Source: a virus
Taxonomy: Duplodnaviria; Heunggongvirae; Uroviricota; Caudoviricetes
IMG/VR virus record: IMGVR_UViG_2562617113_000015
Span: 1 to 30,093 of that record
Strand: one strand, 5' to 3'
DNA: 30,093 bases
Below are positions 1-19,230 of the stretch, piece by piece. The notes below the pieces were generated by a model that was not told the DNA's origin, searched no databases, and saw nothing but the letters and a program-made list of their open reading frames with translations. Positions within the stretch are counted from its first letter, which is position 1. Every line of letters starts with the position of its first letter. The position numbers and the translations under genes are program-made.

Positions 1-1314
1 CTAACTTACTGATTTTAATAGACCTCTTGTGTCACTTTGGTGACTATGGGACATCATTGGGACATAATCTGCCAGCTTCTGATTCAGCATGGCGATCTGT
101 TCTGCATTGCTGTCAGTCATCCATGCTCCGTATACATTGAACACCATCTGGGCACTTGCATGGCCCATCTGGCTGGCAATGAAGCTTGGATTTGCTCCGG
201 CAGATAATGACCAGCACGCATAAGTGTGTCGTGACTGGTATGCCTTTCGATACCTGATGCCAGCACGCTTAATGGCTGTTTCCCATGAGTCGCCAATGGA
301 ATCTACCTTGTAGATAAAACCTACCTGTTTGCTTTTTCTAACCACCTGGGGGTTAAATACGAAAGTACATTCATGATTCACTGAACGTCCATATTCACGT
401 AGTTGCACCTTGATGTGGTGCTGCTTACCCAGTCTTGTCATTTCAGCCTGATTTTTCAGGACACTGATAGCGGGCTGGATAAGATGCACAACCCTGTTTG
501 TACTTGCTTCAGTTTTAGGTAGAGTGAACTCACCGAGTTTCGTATAATTGCGCCTGATAGTAATTGTTCCTGCTTTCAGATCGATATCTTCCCAGGCCAG
601 GGAGACCAGTTCACCATGACGCATTCCTGTGTACACAGCCAATGACCACAGGTTTTTTGTCTGCTGATGCCGGCAAGCATCTATCAGGCGAATAAATTCG
701 TCACGAGTTAGCGGATCTGGCTCTGCCCTGGCTTTTTTAAGAGGCTTAATTCTCTCGAAGGGATTTGCTTCTAAGTAACCGTGATCTGCAGCAAACTGGA
801 ACATTCCAGCGATTGTCGTCATGTAATAATTTACTGTGACAACGCTTCGTCCTTTTACTCGAGCTTTACCTTTTGTTGGATTTTGGTATCCGGTCAGCAA
901 ATCTTTCCTGATATACAGCAATTCCTCTTTGGTCACCGTTGACACCAGTCTGCTACCTCCAATTTTCGGAACCATCGTTCTTGCAACGGATTTATAGCGA
1001 TTGAATGCATTTGCAGAGATTTCCATGCGTTTCAGATCCAGCCACTTTTCTTCAAGTTCTTTCACCGTAATTTCTTTTTTATTTACCCCAAAAGCCTTGA
1101 GGTTAGGAGAGTCAGGGAACTGCGCAGCATAATCAAAGTTTCCTGTACGAATGGCAAAACATACAGATGTCCGCAGCTCTCCGGCGATCTTCCTGTTCTT
1201 GACAGTGTCAGGGACACCAAGATTTTCCCTGACACGTTTACCTTTAAAATTAAACCAGATGCGTAATGTGCCGCCGTGGTTTTCGACGCCTGTTGGATAT
1301 TTGACTTTATCCAT
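1..1314 (-). CDS. int: Tyrosine-type site-specific integrase (437 aa)
   Basis: Long minus-strand ORF at the prophage edge; GGAGG RBS upstream of the ATG at 1314; C-terminal region has the R/H/R/Y-type layout expected of tyrosine recombinases; stop codon is at 1-3, so attL/attR is not in the window. Confidence 0.85.
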   Translation of the reverse strand: MDKVKYPTGVENHGGTLRIWFNFKGKRVRENLGVPDTVKNRKIAGELRTSVCFAIRTGNFDYAAQFPDSPNLKAFGVNKKEITVKELEEKWLDLKRMEISANAFNRYKSVARTMVPKIGGSRLVSTVTKEELLYIRKDLLTGYQNPTKGKARVKGRSVVTVNYYMTTIAGMFQFAADHGYLEANPFERIKPLKKARAEPDPLTRDEFIRLIDACRHQQTKNLWSLAVYTGMRHGELVSLAWEDIDLKAGTITIRRNYTKLGEFTLPKTEASTNRVVHLIQPAISVLKNQAEMTRLGKQHHIKVQLREYGRSVNHECTFVFNPQVVRKSKQVGFIYKVDSIGDSWETAIKRAGIRYRKAYQSRHTYACWSLSAGANPSFIASQMGHASAQMVFNVYGAWMTDSNAEQIAMLNQKLADYVPMMSHSHQSDTRGLLKSVS

Positions 1315-1369
1315 TGATACCTCCAGACGCCCAAGAGCGATACGAGCTTACATATTTCATGGTATTAAA

Positions 1370-1606
1370 TCACCCAGGTTGTTTGTTTTTCATTGAAGAG
1401 ACCCAGGCATCTATTGCTTTTCTGTTATACATACATTCACTGGAAGGTTTTGGATTACCGTCTGGCGATACGTGAATATACTCTCTTCCTACCATCCAGC
1501 ATTCTTTCCGGGCTCGGAGAATTGTGCCAGGTTTGAGCCCGGTAATTGCGATAAGAACGCTTTCACAAACCCATTCATTGGGAGCCAGTTGAATCACATT
1601 GCCCAT
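1370..1606 (-). CDS. xis: Excisionase-like small DNA-binding protein (78 aa)
   Basis: Small ORF immediately upstream of int on the same strand with a GAGG RBS; size and position fit an excisionase; sequence family not verified. Confidence 0.5.
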   Translation of the reverse strand: MGNVIQLAPNEWVCESVLIAITGLKPGTILRARKECWMVGREYIHVSPDGNPKPSSECMYNRKAIDAWVSSMKNKQPG

Positions 1607-1614
1607 GTATTACC

Positions 1615-1761
1615 TCACACAACACTCAGCCCACGGCAGTGGCACCACACTTCAAACATTCGTTTCACAACTTCACGGCAGTAGAAACCGTCAACATCTC
1701 GCGTCAGGTCATAACGATTGCCGTAACGCTGGCGTACCCATAGCTCAAACGCTTTATTCAT
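1615..1761 (-). CDS. Hypothetical small protein (48 aa), not in the ORF track
   Basis: ATG at 1761 (minus) and stop at 1615-1617 read by eye; packed between the flanking genes; below the ORF-track size cutoff. Confidence 0.25.
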   Translation of the reverse strand: MNKAFELWVRQRYGNRYDLTRDVDGFYCREVVKRMFEVWCHCRGLSVV

Positions 1762-1764
1762 TCG

Positions 1765-2007
1765 CTACTTCCTTTTCATGGCTCGTAATTTTTTCAGATG
1801 AGCTTCCTGCTCTGTTTCTGCCAGAATTTGTCGGTATTCCTGGTGATCGATCCGTTCAAACGATTCATTAAAATCGTTCATTTTTACCGATTGTGTTCGC
1901 CCATCCATTCTTCTGTACAACACGGTGTTATTTATGCAGCGAATAATTTTTACCGGGTAACCGGCACTGTCGGTATACAGTTGTCCCTGATTAATCAAAG
2001 CAAACAT
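1765..2007 (-). CDS. Hypothetical protein (80 aa)
   Basis: Internal ATG (MFALINQ...) preceded by GGAG; the track ORF 1765..2130 is probably over-extended at its 5' end. Confidence 0.45.
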   Translation of the reverse strand: MFALINQGQLYTDSAGYPVKIIRCINNTVLYRRMDGRTQSVKMNDFNESFERIDHQEYRQILAETEQEAHLKKLRAMKRK

Positions 2008-2038
2008 TTTTTCTCCTGCTCTCTGAATAGTGAGAACT

Positions 2039-2416
2039 TCAGAGCCGTATGTTTGTAGCGGGTTCAATACTGATAATTTCTGCTGAGATAAGCATCCCGG
2101 CAAGCCAGAGTTCTCCGGACAGGTCTTCATCCTGACATATCAGTTCGCCAATATTAATGGTGGCCATGATATCTGTTTCCCCTGTGCGCTCATCCTTGAC
2201 TTCTTCATAAGGCAGCGTTGCGTACAGGCTTTCAATAGCGCAACTGATAACATCCAGTCCGGTCAGATTGCCGCCGACAGTAACTTCGAATGTTTCGCGG
2301 TATTCCCATAGTCCGAAAGTTAATCGAACGGTTTGGTTTGCCATGCGTCCGCATGACGTCAGATTCGGGTCATAGTTCATTATTTGCGGTTGAGTATTCT
2401 GGGTGTTCATCTGCAT
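2039..2416 (-). CDS. Hypothetical protein (125 aa)
   Basis: ORF with an AAGGGA RBS upstream of the ATG at 2416; no recognisable family. Confidence 0.5.
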   Translation of the reverse strand: MQMNTQNTQPQIMNYDPNLTSCGRMANQTVRLTFGLWEYRETFEVTVGGNLTGLDVISCAIESLYATLPYEEVKDERTGETDIMATINIGELICQDEDLSGELWLAGMLISAEIISIEPATNIRL

Positions 2417-2449
2417 TTCCCTTAGCCCGGCGCCTGCCGGGCATATAAG

Positions 2450-3277
2450 TTATTTAATCTGGATAAATGGTGTATTGGCACCACTGGTCATGTATTGCGG
2501 CAGTGTACCGTTCCACTTGTTGATGGCTTCCAGCTCCATGACGCCTGGGTTCTGGCGTAGAGCTTCGCCGCGTAAACGAATGGCATCGGCTTCTGCCTGG
2601 GCTTTTGTTCGAATGGCATCAGCCTGTCCGGCAGCTTCCGCACGTAGCATGTTGGCCTCCGCTTCACGTTGCTTGACTTCCTGCTCGCGCTGCAGGGTTT
2701 TCTGGTTTGCCGTGACTTTGGCATTAATGCTGTCGATAACGGTTGGCGGGTACTCCGGCTTACCCACATATGAGAGGCTCATTACCTGAATACCGATAGG
2801 TGTCATCTCTGCCTGAATGTCTTTAAGAGCTTCATCCAGCAGCTCAGACTTGCCGCCGTCGATAAATTTGTCAGTGGTCATTTTGCTGGCCAGTCGGTTG
2901 AGTGCGTCGGCGATCTTCTGGCGCAGGTCAGTGTCGGTAATGTCATCCACGCCTTTGCGGTAGGTCTGAAACACCGTGGTAACTTTGGATGGATCAACTT
3001 TGTAGGCCACGCCAATGTGATAGCCGATGGTTGTACCGTCACTCATCTGGAAACTGAACGGTTCATCGTAGGTCTTCATTTGTTTGAAGGTGGGGAAGAT
3101 ATAAACTTCAGTATTCCAGCCAGTCCAGTAGCGACCAACACCGACCACCTCACCGACGCCTTTGTCGTCGCCCAGTTTATTTACCTTGATGCCAACATTA
3201 CCTGGTTCAACGCGATCGCAACCGACAAGGCCAATAGTCGGCAGAACAATGGCTAAAGCAAAAATAATTTTTTTCAT
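2450..3277 (-). CDS. SPFH/band-7 (prohibitin-like) lipoprotein (275 aa)
   Basis: N-terminal signal peptide ending in lipobox L-V-G-C; central SPFH-like region; C-terminal Ala/Glu/Arg/Gln-rich coiled coil; AAGGA RBS; start overlaps the upstream gene's stop (ATGA). Confidence 0.8.
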   Translation of the reverse strand: MKKIIFALAIVLPTIGLVGCDRVEPGNVGIKVNKLGDDKGVGEVVGVGRYWTGWNTEVYIFPTFKQMKTYDEPFSFQMSDGTTIGYHIGVAYKVDPSKVTTVFQTYRKGVDDITDTDLRQKIADALNRLASKMTTDKFIDGGKSELLDEALKDIQAEMTPIGIQVMSLSYVGKPEYPPTVIDSINAKVTANQKTLQREQEVKQREAEANMLRAEAAGQADAIRTKAQAEADAIRLRGEALRQNPGVMELEAINKWNGTLPQYMTSGANTPFIQIK

Positions 3278-3462
3278 CTTTTATCCTTAGTGAAAGAAAG
3301 ACCCTTGTAAATGGCATAAATGCAGGGCGGGGTCAGAAACGCCAGTGCAAAGCCAGAAATAACTGCTATCGTATCCTTCATGGATATAAGGAACGGAACG
3401 AGTAATCCGTAAATGCATGCGATAATTGCCAGTAAAATTACTATTGTGAAATACAGTCTCAT
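3274..3462 (-). CDS. Small two-helix membrane protein (62 aa), translationally coupled to the SPFH gene
   Basis: Two hydrophobic segments; stop overlaps the SPFH start codon (ATGA at 3274-3277). Confidence 0.6.
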   Translation of the reverse strand: MRLYFTIVILLAIIACIYGLLVPFLISMKDTIAVISGFALAFLTPPCIYAIYKGLSFTKDKR

Positions 3463-3485
3463 TGGTCTGTGGTATCCCGATATTT

Positions 3486-3593
3486 TTAACCGACTGACAG
3501 CGCAATAAAGAGAATAATGATTTCAGTTAGTGTCAGTACTGTGGCAAGGATTAAAATCAGTTTTACTCTGTTTAATTCACGGTTGCTTTTCAT
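3486..3593 (-). CDS. Possible small hydrophobic peptide (35 aa: MKSNRELNRVKLILILATVLTLTEIIILFIALSVG)
   Basis: Read by eye on the minus strand; charged N-terminus followed by a single predicted transmembrane helix; no clear Shine-Dalgarno. Confidence 0.25.
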   Translation of the reverse strand: MKSNRELNRVKLILILATVLTLTEIIILFIALSVG

Positions 3594-3638
3594 ATAAACG
3601 GTTGGTAAAAGATGGAAGAATTATATTCTTCTTAATAT

Positions 3639-4220
3639 TTAATGTGTCACTGGCGCTTCTGGCATACCATGAGTATTCAGGTCGTTCATCATTTCATCCA
3701 GAAGGAGTTCAAGCCCTTCGCGCCCCATAGCAGAAATAATGAAACCATTATCAGGATCTGCGATGAGCATTTTTTGATAGAGAAACAGAACTCGCCCCAT
3801 GCCTTCAGCTTCGCCATATTTTTCAATAAATCCCCATTCGACGTGGTTTTGCAGGGCAATACGAAGTGGTCCGGGGTAGATACTCAGGCAACCATGTTTA
3901 CCCTTGTAAATAACCGCGTGATCTGTAGTTCCGTTATCGTTAGGGATATCAACGGTACCGTTCTTGTCTTTCTCTTCATTTATAAACGTAGTCACATACA
4001 GCCATCGCCACTGAGCAACCTTCATATCGACTGAAAATCGTCCCAGCAACCCTGCATCATCGGCTTCAGCAATACATTGCATGATTCTTAAGCCGTGCCA
4101 GTATGGATTGTCGTATTCACCATCATTAAGTCGCTGTACGGCATCAACAAAATTAATGGTTGTATTGCCAATTTTTATGCCATGTGGCGTAACTTCTGGT
4201 CGGAAATCTGAATGATTCAT
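3639..4220 (-). CDS. Hypothetical protein (193 aa), last gene of a coupled three-gene unit
   Basis: Internal ATG at 4220 preceded by AAGGAG; start overlaps the stop of the upstream 62-aa gene (ATGA at 4217-4220); AT-rich; no recognisable family. Confidence 0.6.
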   Translation of the reverse strand: MNHSDFRPEVTPHGIKIGNTTINFVDAVQRLNDGEYDNPYWHGLRIMQCIAEADDAGLLGRFSVDMKVAQWRWLYVTTFINEEKDKNGTVDIPNDNGTTDHAVIYKGKHGCLSIYPGPLRIALQNHVEWGFIEKYGEAEGMGRVLFLYQKMLIADPDNGFIISAMGREGLELLLDEMMNDLNTHGMPEAPVTH

Positions 4221-4405
4221 AATGTTTGCTCCTTTGCTGGTGGAATAATCGTGTAGCCAGCTCTTTTTGCCATCCACAGAAATGTATCCATGCAGCCAAC
4301 GAATTCATTATCCAACAGATGTTTTGAGTAAATTACTTCACCATTTTCAATGGTTAGCAACACTCTTACTTTTTTATGTGTTATGTTTTGTTGTTTTTCT
4401 TTCAT
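4217..4405 (-). CDS. Hypothetical protein (62 aa)
   Basis: GGGAGA RBS; translationally coupled to the downstream 193-aa gene. Confidence 0.5.
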   Translation of the reverse strand: MKEKQQNITHKKVRVLLTIENGEVIYSKHLLDNEFVGCMDTFLWMAKRAGYTIIPPAKEQTL

Positions 4406-4409
4406 TTAT

Positions 4410-4523
4410 TTATCTCCCATATGCTTTGCGCAAATACAGGTTGGCTATATGAAGATAAGAATCTCCATGTTGTGCAATGAGGCAGGCAGTTTTATACGAT
4501 GCCTTATGTTTCAGGAAAGTCAT
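4410..4523 (-). CDS. Possible small basic protein (37 aa: MTFLKHKASYKTACLIAQHGDSYLHIANLYLRKAYGR)
   Basis: Read by eye; AGGAG RBS 8 nt upstream of the ATG at 4523; stop lies 4 nt before the start of the next gene. Confidence 0.25.
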   Translation of the reverse strand: MTFLKHKASYKTACLIAQHGDSYLHIANLYLRKAYGR

Positions 4524-4601
4524 AACATAATCTCCTGCGAATAAAGGTTGCAACAATCCCCGGCGATAAAACCGTAATAAACATTCAGTGAATATTTATT
4601 G

Positions 4602-4802
4602 TTATTGCGCTAATTCTTTTTTGACTGCAGCTTTCGAATATTCACATGCAAAAGACAGGATTTCATCACCTAATGTTTTTGCATTCTGATTATTTGACAT
4701 CTGTAAAACTTGCGCAGCGCACAACAGACTATGAATGTTTATTGCAAATGAATCCGATGCCAGACAAATACCTTCGAAATTGTCATGGATATTACTATTC
4801 AC
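4602..4802 (-). CDS. Small protein (66 aa) paralogous to the N-terminal domain of the adjacent HTH protein
   Basis: GTG start with AAGGAG RBS; segment DSFAINIHSLLCAAQVL...ILSFACEY aligns with DSFALNIANLLSAVRTF...VMEFIHEY of the upstream gene. Confidence 0.55.
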   Translation of the reverse strand: MNSNIHDNFEGICLASDSFAINIHSLLCAAQVLQMSNNQNAKTLGDEILSFACEYSKAAVKKELAQ

Positions 4803-4807
4803 TGCTG

Positions 4808-5260
4808 TTACTCCTTTGCAGCATTGCTACCAGTCAATAACCACATCGGATCGCAGCCAAGAATATTTGCCAGTGGGATAAGCATACTGATGGTTGGTTC
4901 ATACTCTCCGCTCTCCCACTGGATGATGATTTCTTCATCAAGAGCGAGCAGCCTGGCGAGTTCGGCTGTTGTTAAGCCGCAGGCTTCGCGTTGGGTGCGA
5001 AGGTTAACCAGCCAGCTTTCAGGGAAGGATTGTTTTTGTTGTGCAGGAGAAGCAGCAGATAGAGCATATTCATGGATAAATTCCATTACCTCAATGCCCA
5101 GTTCCTTTGAGCGAGCACAATCCAGAAGATGGAATGTGCGTACAGCACTTAGCAAATTTGCAATATTTAATGCAAAGGAATCAAGTTCTAAGCCCTTAAG
5201 CGTAACACAGCCGCAGTTGATAAAATTAGTTGTTTCTGGAGTTGCTTTTAGTGTCTTCAT
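4808..5260 (-). CDS. Two-domain protein (150 aa): unknown N-terminal domain plus C-terminal Cro/C1-type (XRE) HTH
   Basis: C-terminal GLTTAELARLLALDEEIIIQWESGEYEPTISMLIPLANILGCDPMWLL is a typical XRE HTH; first gene downstream of the PL-like promoter. Confidence 0.75.
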   Translation of the reverse strand: MKTLKATPETTNFINCGCVTLKGLELDSFALNIANLLSAVRTFHLLDCARSKELGIEVMEFIHEYALSAASPAQQKQSFPESWLVNLRTQREACGLTTAELARLLALDEEIIIQWESGEYEPTISMLIPLANILGCDPMWLLTGSNAAKE

Positions 5261-5290: not shown

Positions 5291-5342
5291 ATCAAGTTAT
5301 AATTGATGGTGCGATATTATGCTTTGGGAAATAGGCTGTCAA
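5291..5342 (-). promoter_or_regulatory. PL-like leftward promoter with OL operator
   Basis: Minus strand reads TTGACA-N17-TAATAT (-35 at 5337-5342, -10 at 5314-5319); perfect 17-bp palindrome ATCAAGTTATAATTGAT at 5291-5307 at the predicted start site; the ATCAAG half-site recurs in OR. Confidence 0.5.
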
Positions 5343-5370
5343 GAAAAAATTGATATCGTATATTTCAGGC

Positions 5371-5397
5371 AGAAAAAAAACGGGCAAAGCCCGTTAA
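5371..5397 (-). terminator. Rho-independent terminator downstream of the cI-like gene
   Basis: 7-bp stem (AACGGGC / GCCCGTT) with a 3-nt loop, followed on the minus strand by a U8 run; sits 10-30 nt after the cI stop. Confidence 0.65.
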
Positions 5398-6096: not shown

Positions 6097-6229
6097 GACC
6101 AGGTCCTGTGGGTTTCTTTACAAGGATAAATCTTTACTTGATTTTAGTGTATTCGATCCTTTTGCAACTTGCATGTTAATTTAATCTTGATGTATTCTTG
6201 TGTTATCAAGTTAATATTGGTGTTTTGCT
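6097..6229. promoter_or_regulatory. OR-like immunity region with divergent PRM/PR promoters and operator half-sites
   Basis: Intergenic region between divergent cI and cro; ATCAAG/CTTGAT half-sites at 6138-6143, 6186-6191 and 6205-6210; candidate PR is TTGATG-N18-TTAATA (6187-6216); exact -35/-10 assignments are uncertain. Confidence 0.55.
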
Positions 6230-16266: not shown

Positions 16267-16449
16267 ATGACGCGAAAACACTGGACACACAGAATGCCGC
16301 GAACGGCGGTGAAATGGGCACTGGTAGCGATACTGGTGCCTTTTTTCCTGGTGGGCTGCGTCAGCCTGGATAAGGCGCGCCAGCTTTTCGATACAGCTTC
16401 TCAGGTCTGTGAAATTGTTGATAGTGTCCGGCAGTGTATGCAGAACTGA
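16267..16449 (+). CDS. Small lipoprotein (60 aa), possible outer-membrane spanin-like component
   Basis: Signal peptide with lipobox L-V-G-C; lies after the lysis genes; not proline-rich, so the spanin assignment is tentative. Confidence 0.45.
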   Translation: MTRKHWTHRMPRTAVKWALVAILVPFFLVGCVSLDKARQLFDTASQVCEIVDSVRQCMQN

Positions 16450-16491
16450 CCGACGGTGAGAGCAGAATATTTTTTAGAGGAGCGAAATTCT

Positions 16492-16842
16492 ATGCCATCA
16501 CAAATCCCTCGTGCATGCCGTAAGCGAGGCTGCGCAGGCACAACGACGGACAGTTCTGGCTACTGCGATAAGCATCGCGGCGAAGGTTGGACACAACATC
16601 AACGCGGACTGAGCCGCCACCAGCGTGGCTATGGCTCGAAATGGGATGCCATACGTGCGCGCATACTGAAGCGTGATAATCATTTGTGTCAGAACTGCCT
16701 GCGCAATGGGAGAGCCGTTGAAGCCAGAACTGTGGACCACATCATTCCGAAAGCGCATGGCGGTACGGATGCAGACGGTAATCTGCAGAGCCTGTGCTGG
16801 CCATGCCACAAGGCGAAAACAGCGCGTGAACGCATCAACTGA
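16492..16842 (+). CDS. HNH endonuclease (about 116 aa)
   Basis: GAGGAG RBS; Cys-rich HNH region (CQNC ... DHIIPKAHGG ... CWPCH); HNH-before-terminase arrangement. Confidence 0.8.
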   Translation: MPSQIPRACRKRGCAGTTTDSSGYCDKHRGEGWTQHQRGLSRHQRGYGSKWDAIRARILKRDNHLCQNCLRNGRAVEARTVDHIIPKAHGGTDADGNLQSLCWPCHKAKTARERIN

Positions 16843-16990
16843 TAATCGTTCTCATCTGTAAGGGAGGGGCGGGTCAAATCTCTGCAACCCTGGCTGCTCA
16901 GTACCGCCGCCTGACCCTTCCTCACATCGCCGCAGGTTCGAAAACTTTTTTTTGGAAATGTGAACAAACGATTGATAGGTAAGACCGATT

Positions 16991-17473
16991 ATGTCAGGAC
17001 CTCCGAAAACCCCGCCACGCCTGCATTTGATACGAGGCAACCCCTCAAAGCGTCCCGTTAAAGACCACAAAAAAACCGCTAAAAAGGATGAAAAAGGTCT
17101 TCCTAAAATTCCGCAGCATTTAGGGGCTCAGGGGAAGTACTGGTTCAGGCGAATGGCGGAAGAGCTGAATGCGGAAGGGATCATTTCTCAGCTTGATGCA
17201 CGTGCGCTCGAGTTGCTGGTGGAAGCCTACACCGAATATCGGCATCACTGCGAAACACTCGATGTTGAGGGGTATACTTACCGCACGGAAACGCAGAGCG
17301 GTGATGTACTGATTAAGGCGCACCCCGCGGCGGCAATGAAAGCGGATGCCTGGAAGCGGATCCGGGCAATGCTTGCAGAGTTTGGTATGTCACCGGCAAG
17401 CCGGGCTAAAGTAAATATCGCCGGACCGGATGATGTTGATCCGCTGGCGGAGCTTTTAAAAGCGAGAGACTGA
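16991..17473 (+). CDS. terS: Terminase small subunit (P27-like family)
   Basis: Position immediately before the large terminase; size and basic N-terminus. Confidence 0.75.
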   Translation: MSGPPKTPPRLHLIRGNPSKRPVKDHKKTAKKDEKGLPKIPQHLGAQGKYWFRRMAEELNAEGIISQLDARALELLVEAYTEYRHHCETLDVEGYTYRTETQSGDVLIKAHPAAAMKADAWKRIRAMLAEFGMSPASRAKVNIAGPDDVDPLAELLKARD

Positions 17474-19230
17474 TGGCAAAAGTGGCTGACGGGATCCGCT
17501 ACGCCGAACGTGTTGTTGCAGGAGAAATTGTTGCTGGCGAATTTGTCCGCCTGGCCTGCCAGCGTTTTCTTGATGATCTGAAGTACGGCGAAGAGCGGGG
17601 GATTTATTTCAGTGAACCCCGTGCGCAGCACATCCTGAATTTCTACAAATTTGTGCCTCATGTAAAAGGGGCGCTGGCAGGCCAGCCCATTGAGTTGATG
17701 GACTGGCATGTATTTATCCTCATTAATATTTTTGGTTTTGTCATTCCGCTGGTCAATGAAGAGACCGGGGAAGTTGTCATGCGCAGCGATGGCAGCGGAC
17801 GTCCGGTGATGGTGCGCCGGTTCCGGACGGCGTACAACGAAGTCGCCCGTAAAAACGCAAAATCAACTCTGTCATCGGGTATCGGCCTGTATATGACGGG
17901 GGCAGATGGTGAAGGCGGAGCTGAGGTGTATTCAGCCGCAACCACGCGTGACCAGGCCAGAATCGTGTTTGAAGACGCCAAAAATATGGTCAGAAAAGCC
18001 CGGTCGACACTCGGGCGGTTGTTTGATTTCAACAAGCTGGCGATTTACCAGGAGCAGAGCGCATCAAAATTTGAACCGCTTTCTTCGGATGCAAACAACC
18101 TGGATGGTCTGAACATTCACTGCGCCATTATTGATGAGCTGCATGCACATAAAACCCGTGACGTGTGGGACGTTCTGGAAACGGCAACCGGTGCTCGTCT
18201 GCAGTCCCTTTTATTTGGTATCACCACGGCAGGGTTTAACAAGGAAGGGATTTGTTACGAGCAGCGTGATTACGCCATCAAGGTATTGCGTGGCTATAAC
18301 AGCGACGTGGAGGGCGCGGTAAAAGACGACTCCTACTTTGCGATTATTTACACCCTCGATGAGGGAGATGATCCGTTTGATGAAACGGTCTGGCAGAAAG
18401 CGAATCCCGGCCTGGGCATCTGTAAACGCTGGGATGATCTGCGTCGCTTGGCGAAAAAAGCGAAAGAACAGGTCTCTGCACGGGTGAATTTTTTTACCAA
18501 ACACATGAATGTGTGGGTAACAGCAGAGTCTGCCTGGATGGACATGATTAAGTGGGAGAAGTGCGAATACATTGCCCCACGACATGAGCTGAAAACGTAT
18601 CCCATGTGGGTCGGCGTTGACCTTGCTCATAAGATTGATATCTGTGCGGCGGCAAAACTCTGGCGAACGGATAACGGGCATGTTCATGCCGATTTTAAAT
18701 TCTGGCTTCCGGAAGGACGGCTGGAACGATGCTCGCGGCAGCAGGCAGAACTTTACCGGAAGTGGGCGGAGATGGATAAGCTGATTCTGACGGATGGTGA
18801 TGTTATCGATCATGCTCAGATAAAAAGTGACTTACTGGAATGGATTGGTGGTGAAAACCTCAGGGAACTGGGATTTGACCCGTGGAGCGCGATGCAGTTC
18901 AGCCTGGCACTGGCTGAAGAAGGGATACCGCTGGTGGAGGTTCCGCAGACGGTTCGCAATCTGTCAGAGGCCATGAAGGAAACGGAATCACTGGTCTATG
19001 CCGGGCGTTTCCATCACAGCAATCATCCGGTCATGAACTGGATGATGTCTAACGTTACGGTAAAACCGGACAAAAACGACAATATCTTCCCGAATAAATC
19101 CACGCTGGAAGCCAAAATCGACGGTCCTGTTGCGATGTTTACAGCAATGAGCCGGATGCTGGTCAATGGCGGTGAACCGGAGCCGGATCTGTCTGAGCAT
19201 CTGGTCAGCGTTGGTATCCGCTCGCTTTAA
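17473..19230 (+). CDS. terL: Terminase large subunit (585 aa)
   Basis: Long ORF with an ATPase N-terminal half and nuclease C-terminal half, in the expected position. Confidence 0.9.

Follow-up and report, generated by a model that had tools for sequence, protein, structure and literature searches.

A conserved two-part phage cassette encoding an SPFH lipoprotein and a two-helix membrane protein in a P27-like prophage

HflK and HflC are the closest described host relatives of the phage SPFH protein reported here; their cages normally enclose the protease FtsH, whose periplasmic domains bind to the HflK/C SPFH2 domains within the cage (PMC12624060). In SPFH-NfeD operons (QmcA-YbbJ, YqiK-YqiJ, and the archaeal stomatin-PH1510), an SPFH gene adjoins a co-oriented small membrane gene, and among phages the nearest counterpart is the gp19/gp20 gene pair of N4. 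Here we analyzed a 30,093-nucleotide stretch of DNA from a virus of the class Caudoviricetes (IMG/VR record IMGVR_UViG_2562617113_000015, positions 1 to 30,093; hereafter, the window), in which the gene for a 62 amino acid two-helix membrane protein overlaps the gene for a 275 amino acid SPFH (Band-7) lipoprotein. The SPFH gene as such is no novelty, since it was deposited long ago and bears an SPFH lipoprotein annotation; the new finding is a conserved two-part, sometimes fused, phage cassette formed by the two genes, distinct from the HflK/C and SPFH-NfeD systems.

Phage SPFH proteins have been commented on in several genome papers. A role linked to HflKC or lysogeny was speculated upon for phages CSP3 (PMC10269572), AH14b (PMC4936722), and Delta (PMC8540360), the last of these papers already remarking on the presence of such proteins in obligately lytic phages. 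Adsorption or DNA entry was proposed in the GIB1 genome paper (PMC13239085), and for Kayvirus, assistance in secreting the Tgl enzyme (PMC7150955). In the open-access literature searched we found no description of the conserved partner protein with two transmembrane (TM) helices or of its fusions to the SPFH protein, and two surveys of prokaryotic SPFH diversity make no mention of phages.

Both genes lie on the minus strand of the window, as do all the features described within them. The open reading frame (ORF) list places the gene for the 62 amino acid protein, a PHROG 1130 member and homologue of N4 gp19 predicted to reside in the inner membrane, at 3274..3462; the SPFH gene, which corresponds to L05 of phage phiP27, belongs to PHROG 200, and is the orthologue of N4 gp20, lies at 2450..3277. 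They meet in an ATGA stop/start overlap (3274..3277), composed of the TGA stop of the small ORF (3276-3274) and the ATG of the SPFH gene (3277-3275), an arrangement that reads as translational coupling. A Shine-Dalgarno motif for the SPFH gene (AAGGA, 3284..3288) is located inside the end of the small ORF, with the ATG 6 nt further on, and an identical 4-nt overlap is found in Pylas gp28/gp29, Ostro, phi1026b, and many bacterial loci. The ratio of non-synonymous to synonymous polymorphism (pN/pS) of the 62 amino acid gene, calculated over 28 alleles, is 0.40, close to the value of 0.38 obtained for the SPFH gene, which argues that the small ORF is a genuine coding gene. Alleles were counted in an IMG/VR scan with a diverse alignment, which recovered only relatives of at least 91% identity, and diversity was assessed in the species-genome scan.

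An earlier note, made from the sequence of this locus alone, had proposed an SPFH domain, a lipoprotein signal peptide, and a long C-terminal coiled coil in the larger protein, and two membrane helices in the smaller one, and all of these assignments were borne out. The SPFH1 and SPFH2 domains (residues 22-208; 2654..3214) were delimited by the Pfam Band_7 envelope (PF01145, clan CL0433; E = 3e-31; score 109.2 bits, gathering threshold 23.6), the secondary structure of an AlphaFold2 (AF2) model, and Foldseek, and the complete protein matched PHROG 200 ("lipoprotein") with E = 3.9e-114. Its N-terminus reads MKKIIFALAIVLPTIGLVG-C, that is, a lipoprotein signal peptide (residues 1-19) followed by the lipobox cysteine Cys20 (LVGC; 3218..3277), which is unchanged in 11 of 11 divergent phage homologues. 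The residue at position +2 after this cysteine is Asp, the classical inner-membrane retention signal in E. coli. The AF2 monomer (predicted local distance difference test score, pLDDT, of 78) shows two alpha/beta SPFH subdomains and one continuous CC1-type helix of 65 residues (178-242; 2552..2746), which would form the wall of the predicted cage. Toward the C-terminus, in a presumed cap-forming region, the motif I-x-K-W-N-G-x-L-P (residues 252-260; 2498..2524) has K254, W255, G257, and P260 unchanged in 11 of 11 divergent phage homologues; residues 246-275 are modeled with low confidence (pLDDT <50). Conservation of the SPFH protein extends from end to end between enterobacterial and Staphylococcus phages. 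A published regression of SPFH cage subunit number on CC1 length (y = 0.1782x + 10.22; PMC12624060), when extrapolated to the 65-residue helix, would give about 22 subunits.

Comparison of the predicted fold with known structures gave full-length matches to cage subunits, led by HflC/HflK (7vhq), prohibitin (8rrh), and erlin1/2 (9vvj) with E values of about 1e-13 and including 7wi3 and 9cz2 (HflC/HflK), PHB1/2, stomatin, flotillin, QmcA-YbbJ (8z5g, rank 33), and major vault protein (MVP). The Foldseek probability was 1.00 for HflK/C, PHB1/2, erlin1/2, stomatin, flotillin, QmcA, and MVP. At the sequence level, PDB matches were restricted to HflK and prohibitins (E = 4e-4 and weaker), and the best NCBIfam matches were HflC and HflK, though both remained below threshold. 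These fold and sequence matches, together with equivalog scores below the cut-off, indicate that the protein belongs to the outward-facing, protease-associated branch of the superfamily and is not an HflK/HflC orthologue. It shares with HflK and HflC the periplasm-facing SPFH1-SPFH2-coiled-coil architecture, and its modeled helix length would fit a cage of approximately 22-24 subunits, but identity to these proteins is only about 17-18% and the locus has no hflX-hflK-hflC context.

The smaller protein matched PHROG 1130 ("membrane protein"; E = 2.5e-23), a family filed under the category "moron / host takeover". Hydropathy analysis places TM1 at residues 7-25 and TM2 at residues 32-50, with positive charges at both ends, and these two hydrophobic helices with basic ends predict an N-in/C-in topology. 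Between the helices, family alignment revealed a motif of the short, presumably periplasmic loop, P-x-[LM]-[IV]-S-x-x-[DS], which is PFLISMKD in this protein (3373..3396). Pro23 and Ser27 of this motif are at least 90% conserved across 22 stand-alone and fused homologues and invariant inside each of the two sets, and the motif, followed by a conserved Gly in TM2, is common to partners from proteobacterial phages and genomes.

The SPFH-NfeD operons resemble this locus in that an SPFH gene adjoins a co-oriented small membrane gene, but the partner encoded here is a two-TM hairpin without an NfeD (PF01957) or OB-fold domain. The NfeD profile check that the earlier note had called for came back negative, as neither Pfam nor NCBIfam gave such a signal in the 62 amino acid protein, in 10 partners from other phages, or in the N-terminal domains of fusion proteins (Pfam on eight of the latter). 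The orientation of the SPFH protein differs as well, since QmcA faces the cytoplasm and the protein described here is predicted from its signal peptide to be exported and lipidated. Two further identities were considered and discarded. The label "putative serine protease", carried by L05 in the GenBank record of phiP27, appears to be an annotation relic, as no protease family was matched and a PHROG "protease" match is weak and partial (E = 6e-4) and lies over the coiled coil. For a two-component spanin (Rz/Rz1), the sizes are reversed, the lipoprotein being the large coiled-coil protein, and the pair is located in the early-left arm, with the P27 lysis genes elsewhere.

The closest match to the pair as a whole was gp19 (membrane protein) and gp20 (lipoprotein) of coliphage N4. 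The SPFH protein is 63% identical to gp20 over its full length (E = 3e-130), and the 62 amino acid protein shares the TM1-loop-TM2 core of gp19, with 37% identity in that core. All the features of the N4 type are found in the window, including matches to both PHROG profiles, the order of small gene and then SPFH gene, the lipobox cysteine, and the KWNG-LP and loop motifs. The settings differ in that N4 is strictly virulent and carries its pair directly after the genes for RNA polymerase II, whereas the pair described here occupies the int-proximal early-left arm of a temperate phage.

To quantify the association between the two genes, loci in species-representative genomes were grouped according to the identity of their SPFH protein to the query. 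An abutting two-TM ORF was present in 14 of the 16 loci with at least 40% SPFH identity, the other two being split by an IS1 between the genes; at 30-39% identity the fraction was 17/39, and below 30% it was 6/23. By comparison, only 8 of 830 other ORFs of at least 150 amino acids in the same loci (1%) had such a neighbor. In N4, a small two-TM ORF overlaps the SPFH gene with the same gene order as here, and in Moo19, Pylas, Ostro, and phi1026b a small two-TM ORF is located directly upstream of the SPFH gene, usually with an overlap of 1-8 nt. RCS47 has the upstream partner ORF, although unannotated, and SSE121 has one extra small ORF between partner and SPFH gene. Upstream ORFs of other kinds are also found, with three TM helices in phiCbK and a single one in Staphylococcus Kayvirus (MbpV/MbpS), MHN1 (9-nt gap), and Bacillus phage B4 (12-nt gap).

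The strongest evidence for this association came from natural fusions of the two genes: 19 of the best 150 cluster representatives are single ORFs of 322-392 amino acids in which a two-TM domain with the same motif is followed by a K/R-rich linker, a third hydrophobic helix with an intact lipobox, and the SPFH region. Alignment of stand-alone partners with the N-terminal domains of fusions gave an hhalign probability of 98.8% (E = 6.5e-17), and an AF2 model of one fusion shows three TM helices (pLDDT of about 80). The fusion loci are found on phage-like contigs, and two of the fusions occur in two independent samples each. Because the TM2-TM3 linker is rich in K/R, the partner part would be N-in/C-in with the SPFH part outside, and the invariance of the lipobox cysteine in 18 fusion proteins suggests that these proteins continue to receive a lipid anchor and that signal peptidase II may cleave them into the same two parts. 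The conserved abutment and the natural fusions indicate that the two genes form one functional unit, in agreement with the functional tie that the earlier note had drawn between them. Its statement that the proteins are fused by the ATGA holds in so far as the reading frames overlap, but there is no single ORF in the window, and true fusions exist elsewhere.

Individual loci showed further features. In Shigella flexneri CP182556 (locus L092, 3027-4001) and in locus L093, an IS1-type element lies exactly at the junction of small gene and SPFH gene, where it uncouples the genes and changes the C-terminus of the small protein. Many Caulobacterales genomes (loci L129-L151 and other Caulobacter/Asticcacaulis loci) have a homologue of about 30% identity, often with a two-TM ORF upstream, and in Phenylobacterium-type loci a pentapeptide-repeat gene takes the place of this ORF. 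On the contig of one fusion protein (P0182, contig L178), a gene for an Acb2/Tad1-hairpin protein of the anti-CBASS/anti-Thoeris sponge family (218-520) is located two ORFs upstream of the fusion.

The cassette is widely distributed. By tblastn, 737 of 50,697 phage records carry an SPFH homologue, the top names being Staphylococcus, Pseudomonas, and Enterococcus phages, for the most part strictly virulent groups, and a HMMER search over 1.84 billion cluster representatives returned 229 matches at E<=1e-30 and 966 at E<=1e-10. An identity of 48-91% is common to P27-like, P1-like, N4-like, and Vequintavirinae phages. The large virulent or long-cycle carriers include Kayvirus, Vequintavirinae, Kuttervirus, jumbo phages, phiCbK, and N4, and Band 7 ORFs are also present in the T4-like phages RB43, 44RR, and Aeh1; a Kuttervirus homologue of the SPFH protein was detected by mass spectrometry in a phage preparation. 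In bacterial genomes, the region is found in 398 of 5,426 complete E. coli genomes, at 427 chromosomal and 34 plasmid places, the plasmid copies being presumably P1-like phage-plasmids such as RCS47. The earlier note had described the pair as not standard lambdoid equipment; it is indeed absent from lambda, but it is a widespread phage cassette (PHROG 200/1130) and not a prophage oddity.

In the window, the cassette is part of a P27-like left arm. Positions 1-4775 are 95.7% identical to the left arm of phiP27, a Stx2e phage, with the order int, xis, L03, L04, L05, confirming the prophage context read earlier from the sequence, and the SPFH protein is 99.6% identical to phiP27 L05, which is labeled "putative serine protease" in GenBank (AJ298298) and "lipoprotein" in RefSeq (NC_003356). 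The 62 amino acid gene is unannotated in both phiP27 records, where the start given for L04 overlaps L05, and is called "hypothetical protein" by PGAP in E. coli genomes. On the same strand, the SPFH gene is followed on its 3' side by DUF5406, DUF4222, xis, and int, and upstream of the pair lie homologues of L06 and L07, a CII-like regulator, and a LexA-type CI repressor. The CII-like regulator (4808-5260, minus strand; phrog_4836, E = 8e-77) is the first gene of the putative leftward operon, and no match to a CIII-annotated PHROG was found among the left-arm ORFs searched.

A promoter scan placed a candidate leftward early promoter, TTGACA-17-TAATAT, at 5314..5342 on the minus strand, with 10/12 consensus matches. 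A repeat search found operator-like repeats (TCAAG-N6-TTGAT) that flank this promoter (5291-5307 and 5338-5354) and recur beside the cro-like gene (6205-6221). A terminator-like site is predicted after cI (5379..5395, minus strand), and none is predicted on the minus strand from the leftward promoter to int. The repeats and the promoter just past the cI terminator look, by sequence, like a PL/OL-type control region heading the cassette operon, and this promoter is probably where transcripts that run through the cassette begin. Taking into account the PL-like promoter, the operator-like repeats, and the lack of a predicted intervening terminator, the cassette would be made on induction or infection.

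Our leading, although tentative, reading of this evidence is that the cassette products form an HflK/C-like cage at the periplasmic side of the inner membrane, with FtsH as the leading candidate client, and serve the takeover of the host membrane in lytic development. Following processing by signal peptidase II, the SPFH protein would be held solely by its lipid anchor (Cys20, Asp+2), and the 62 amino acid partner, made by coupled translation, would supply the palisade of TM helices that HflK and HflC carry in their own chain. The ratio of partner to SPFH protein is presumably about 1:1, and would be exactly 1:1 in the fusions. The conserved periplasmic loop of the partner would be placed where the SPFH1 domains reach the membrane, and some 20-24 copies would assemble into a closed dome, setting an area of inner membrane apart. 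From its position in the leftward early operon, the cassette would be produced on induction or infection, in early lytic development, a timing that agrees with virulent N4-like phages, where the pair is among the genes that follow those for RNA polymerase II. Such a cage would decide which inner-membrane proteins meet, and it is possible, though still doubtful, that its role is to control access to FtsH-type quality control. FtsH is placed first among the candidate clients because of the affinity of the SPFH protein to HflK and prohibitin, the predicted location on the same side of the membrane, the known binding of FtsH to SPFH2 domains, the CII-like regulator in the same operon, and the lack of a CIII match. 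In a broader and rather speculative formulation, the pair would be a mobile "split SPFH" cassette used by phages of every lifestyle (temperate P27-like and P1-like; virulent N4-like, Vequintavirinae, T4-like, and jumbo phages, and Gram-positive Herelleviridae), consisting of a virus-made outer-face cage with a two-TM palisade that sequesters either FtsH or the DNA-entry route, with fusions cut at the lipobox.

The analogy to lambda CIII, which had been suggested in the earlier note, requires separate consideration. CIII, an FtsH inhibitor encoded in the PL operon, is a short amphipathic peptide of the cytoplasm that acts as a competing substrate of this protease. The pair has a similar position, sharing a putative leftward early operon with the gene for a CII-like regulator, but it is predicted to be membrane-bound and periplasmic and is common in phages that are unable to lysogenize. 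The carriers being mostly strictly virulent phages, a purely cIII-like role in lysogeny cannot be the general function of the cassette. A cIII-like effect could nevertheless arise as a consequence in temperate carriers, where a push to lysogeny would be at most a side effect.

Several observations weigh against an FtsH-directed, HflK/C-like cage. Most SPFH carriers are virulent phages, in which a benefit from FtsH control is speculative, and distant homologues are encoded by haloarchaeal viruses, whose hosts are not known to have FtsH; their occurrence there weakens the strict FtsH model. The locus has one SPFH gene and no K/C pair, and the protein would have a lipid anchor and no TM anchor of its own. 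It also falls far below the cut-offs of the NCBIfam equivalogs for HflC and HflK (TIGR01932 and TIGR01933), with 25.9 bits against 134.4 for HflC and 23.1 against 159.4 for HflK. The predicted inner-membrane location is itself insecure, since Arg follows at +3, which may weaken retention by Asp+2, and elsewhere in the family the +2 position is filled by Y, E, S, or G. The scan detected no sigma-70-like promoter directly upstream of the pair, the one minus-strand promoter-like site falling inside the small ORF, and the proposed timing rests on consensus scans. Finally, an experiment on any phage SPFH lipoprotein, N4 gp19/gp20 included, was not found in the open-access literature searched.

Other functions can be proposed for the same architecture. 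One is superinfection exclusion, in which the pair would alter the periplasmic face of the inner membrane and so keep out the DNA of another phage; exclusion systems usually consist of small inner-membrane proteins and lipoproteins, as in T4 Imm/Sp, T5 Llp, Cor, TP-J34 Ltp, P22 SieA, and HK97 gp15, which are likewise expressed early or from prophages. As with known exclusion genes, the cassette is found in virulent and temperate phages alike, it moves between unrelated phages of the same hosts, and its small protein belongs to a "moron / host takeover" family. A neighboring gene in N4 and Moo19 is annotated as "superinfection exclusion, similar to P22 gp17", and PhiSH19 also has a neighbor with an exclusion annotation, but these annotations are based on similarity alone. 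We consider this explanation unlikely on balance, as an SPFH protein conserved end to end between enterobacterial and Staphylococcus phages speaks for a generic target in the host and not for a phage-specific one, and a cage of 20-plus subunits would be an uncommon way to exclude phages. Neither sequences nor profiles revealed a relation to the known systems, none of them has an SPFH domain or an expected cage, and defense-protein models (PADLOC-DB v2.0.0, E up to 0.1) gave no match for the pair or three neighboring genes. An equally improbable alternative is that the cage stabilizes or repairs the inner membrane and keeps it energized over a long infection, as flotillin and YdjI-PspA do but from the outside, thereby delaying premature lysis or blunting membrane-damaging abortive-infection effectors. 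The family is commonest in large virulent phages and in phages with long cycles, including N4 with its lysis inhibition, and one fusion locus has an Acb2/Tad1-type anti-defense gene two genes away; host SPFH proteins have also been linked to protection from envelope stress (PMC8581546). This membrane-guarding function is hard to tell apart from the other readings, and a preprint on N4 lysis inhibition leaves gp19/gp20 unmentioned.

A role in lysis timing, with the two-TM protein acting as a pore former of class II holin or antiholin type that is restrained or organized by the SPFH cage, appears improbable to us. The size of the partner, its two helices of N-in/C-in topology, and its charged C-terminus are typical of class II holins, a likeness of architecture and not of homology, and in Kayvirus the genes MbpV/MbpS are located between the endolysin/holin genes and tgl, MbpV being described as holin-like (PMC7150955). 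The endolysin-adjacent position of class II holin cassettes is, however, absent for the 62 amino acid gene, which is always linked to the SPFH gene, and lysis-gene neighbors are found in Kayviruses only; P27-like, N4-like, Vequintavirinae, Pseudomonas, and Burkholderia phages have the pair in an early or middle region, well away from their lysis genes. In addition, P27 has its own holins and endolysin, and conservation in the small protein falls on the periplasmic loop and not on a pore-lining face. Least probable of all is a lysogenic-conversion or virulence lipoprotein, expressed from the prophage, exported on vesicles, and acting on the animal host. This idea draws on PM0222 of Pasteurella multocida, an HflK/C-like protein of a prophage island that activates Toll-like receptor (TLR) 1/2 signaling and whose deletion attenuates virulence in mice (PMC9872710), and on the fact that P27-type phages are Stx2e converters. 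PM0222 is similar to our protein in being a prophage-borne SPFH protein with a reported phenotype, but that phenotype concerns the animal host, the two proteins are likened by description alone, and TLR2 stimulation is possible for any bacterial lipoprotein. Moreover, the cassette is also carried by environmental and strictly virulent phages, and here it has no detected promoter of its own and is part of an early operon that is probably repressed.

The surroundings of the cassette showed additional features. A putative third gene (3486..3593, minus strand), unannotated and 23 nt upstream of the 62 amino acid gene, encodes a 35 amino acid single-helix membrane peptide with the sequence MKSNRELNRVKLILILATVLTLTEIIILFIALSVG, possibly adding a third small membrane protein to the cassette. 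This ORF is uninterrupted in 37 related loci and has a pN/pS of about 0.33, a value based on little divergence, and a PHROG profile search with it gave no match. Directly after the SPFH stop lies a GC-rich hairpin with a 7-bp stem, a 4-nt loop, and no U-tract (2425..2442, minus strand; -17.2 kcal/mol, z = -2.8), which could be a marker of the cassette end or an mRNA stabilizer. On the other side, after the upstream L06-like gene, folding predicted a weak AT hairpin and CAUCUUUU (3615-3631, minus strand). The cassette has a GC content of 0.50-0.55 against 0.36-0.45 in its flanks, and this raised GC content and the hairpins on both sides make it look like an insert. The window as a whole is a P27-like prophage of mosaic structure, in which the stx2e genes and both tRNA genes of phiP27 are absent (12200-15000 compared with phiP27 15500-19100), ARAGORN detecting no tRNA in the window, and its immunity region (cI, cro, and antirepressor) is unlike that of P27.

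With regard to annotation, "putative serine protease" is wrong for P27 L05, and the phiP27 records lack the gene for its 62 amino acid partner. The carriers of the cassette include the classic model phage N4, Stx-converting P27-type prophages, P1-like phage-plasmids, and therapeutic Kayviruses, and its function is therefore testable with existing genetics. The structures of SPFH cages (HflK/C, prohibitin, stomatin, flotillin, and erlin) are understood but their functions are unclear, and a viral version, which would have been selected for one task in infection and would have a dedicated, genetically separable membrane subunit, could reveal what such cages do. If the target is FtsH, the cassette would represent a second phage route to that protease, mechanistically different from lambda CIII; were DNA entry or the integrity of the membrane the target, the cassette would be a new kind of exclusion or host-maintenance device. 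Should the "split SPFH" cage prove true, it would constitute an unrecognized class of phage machine for host takeover.

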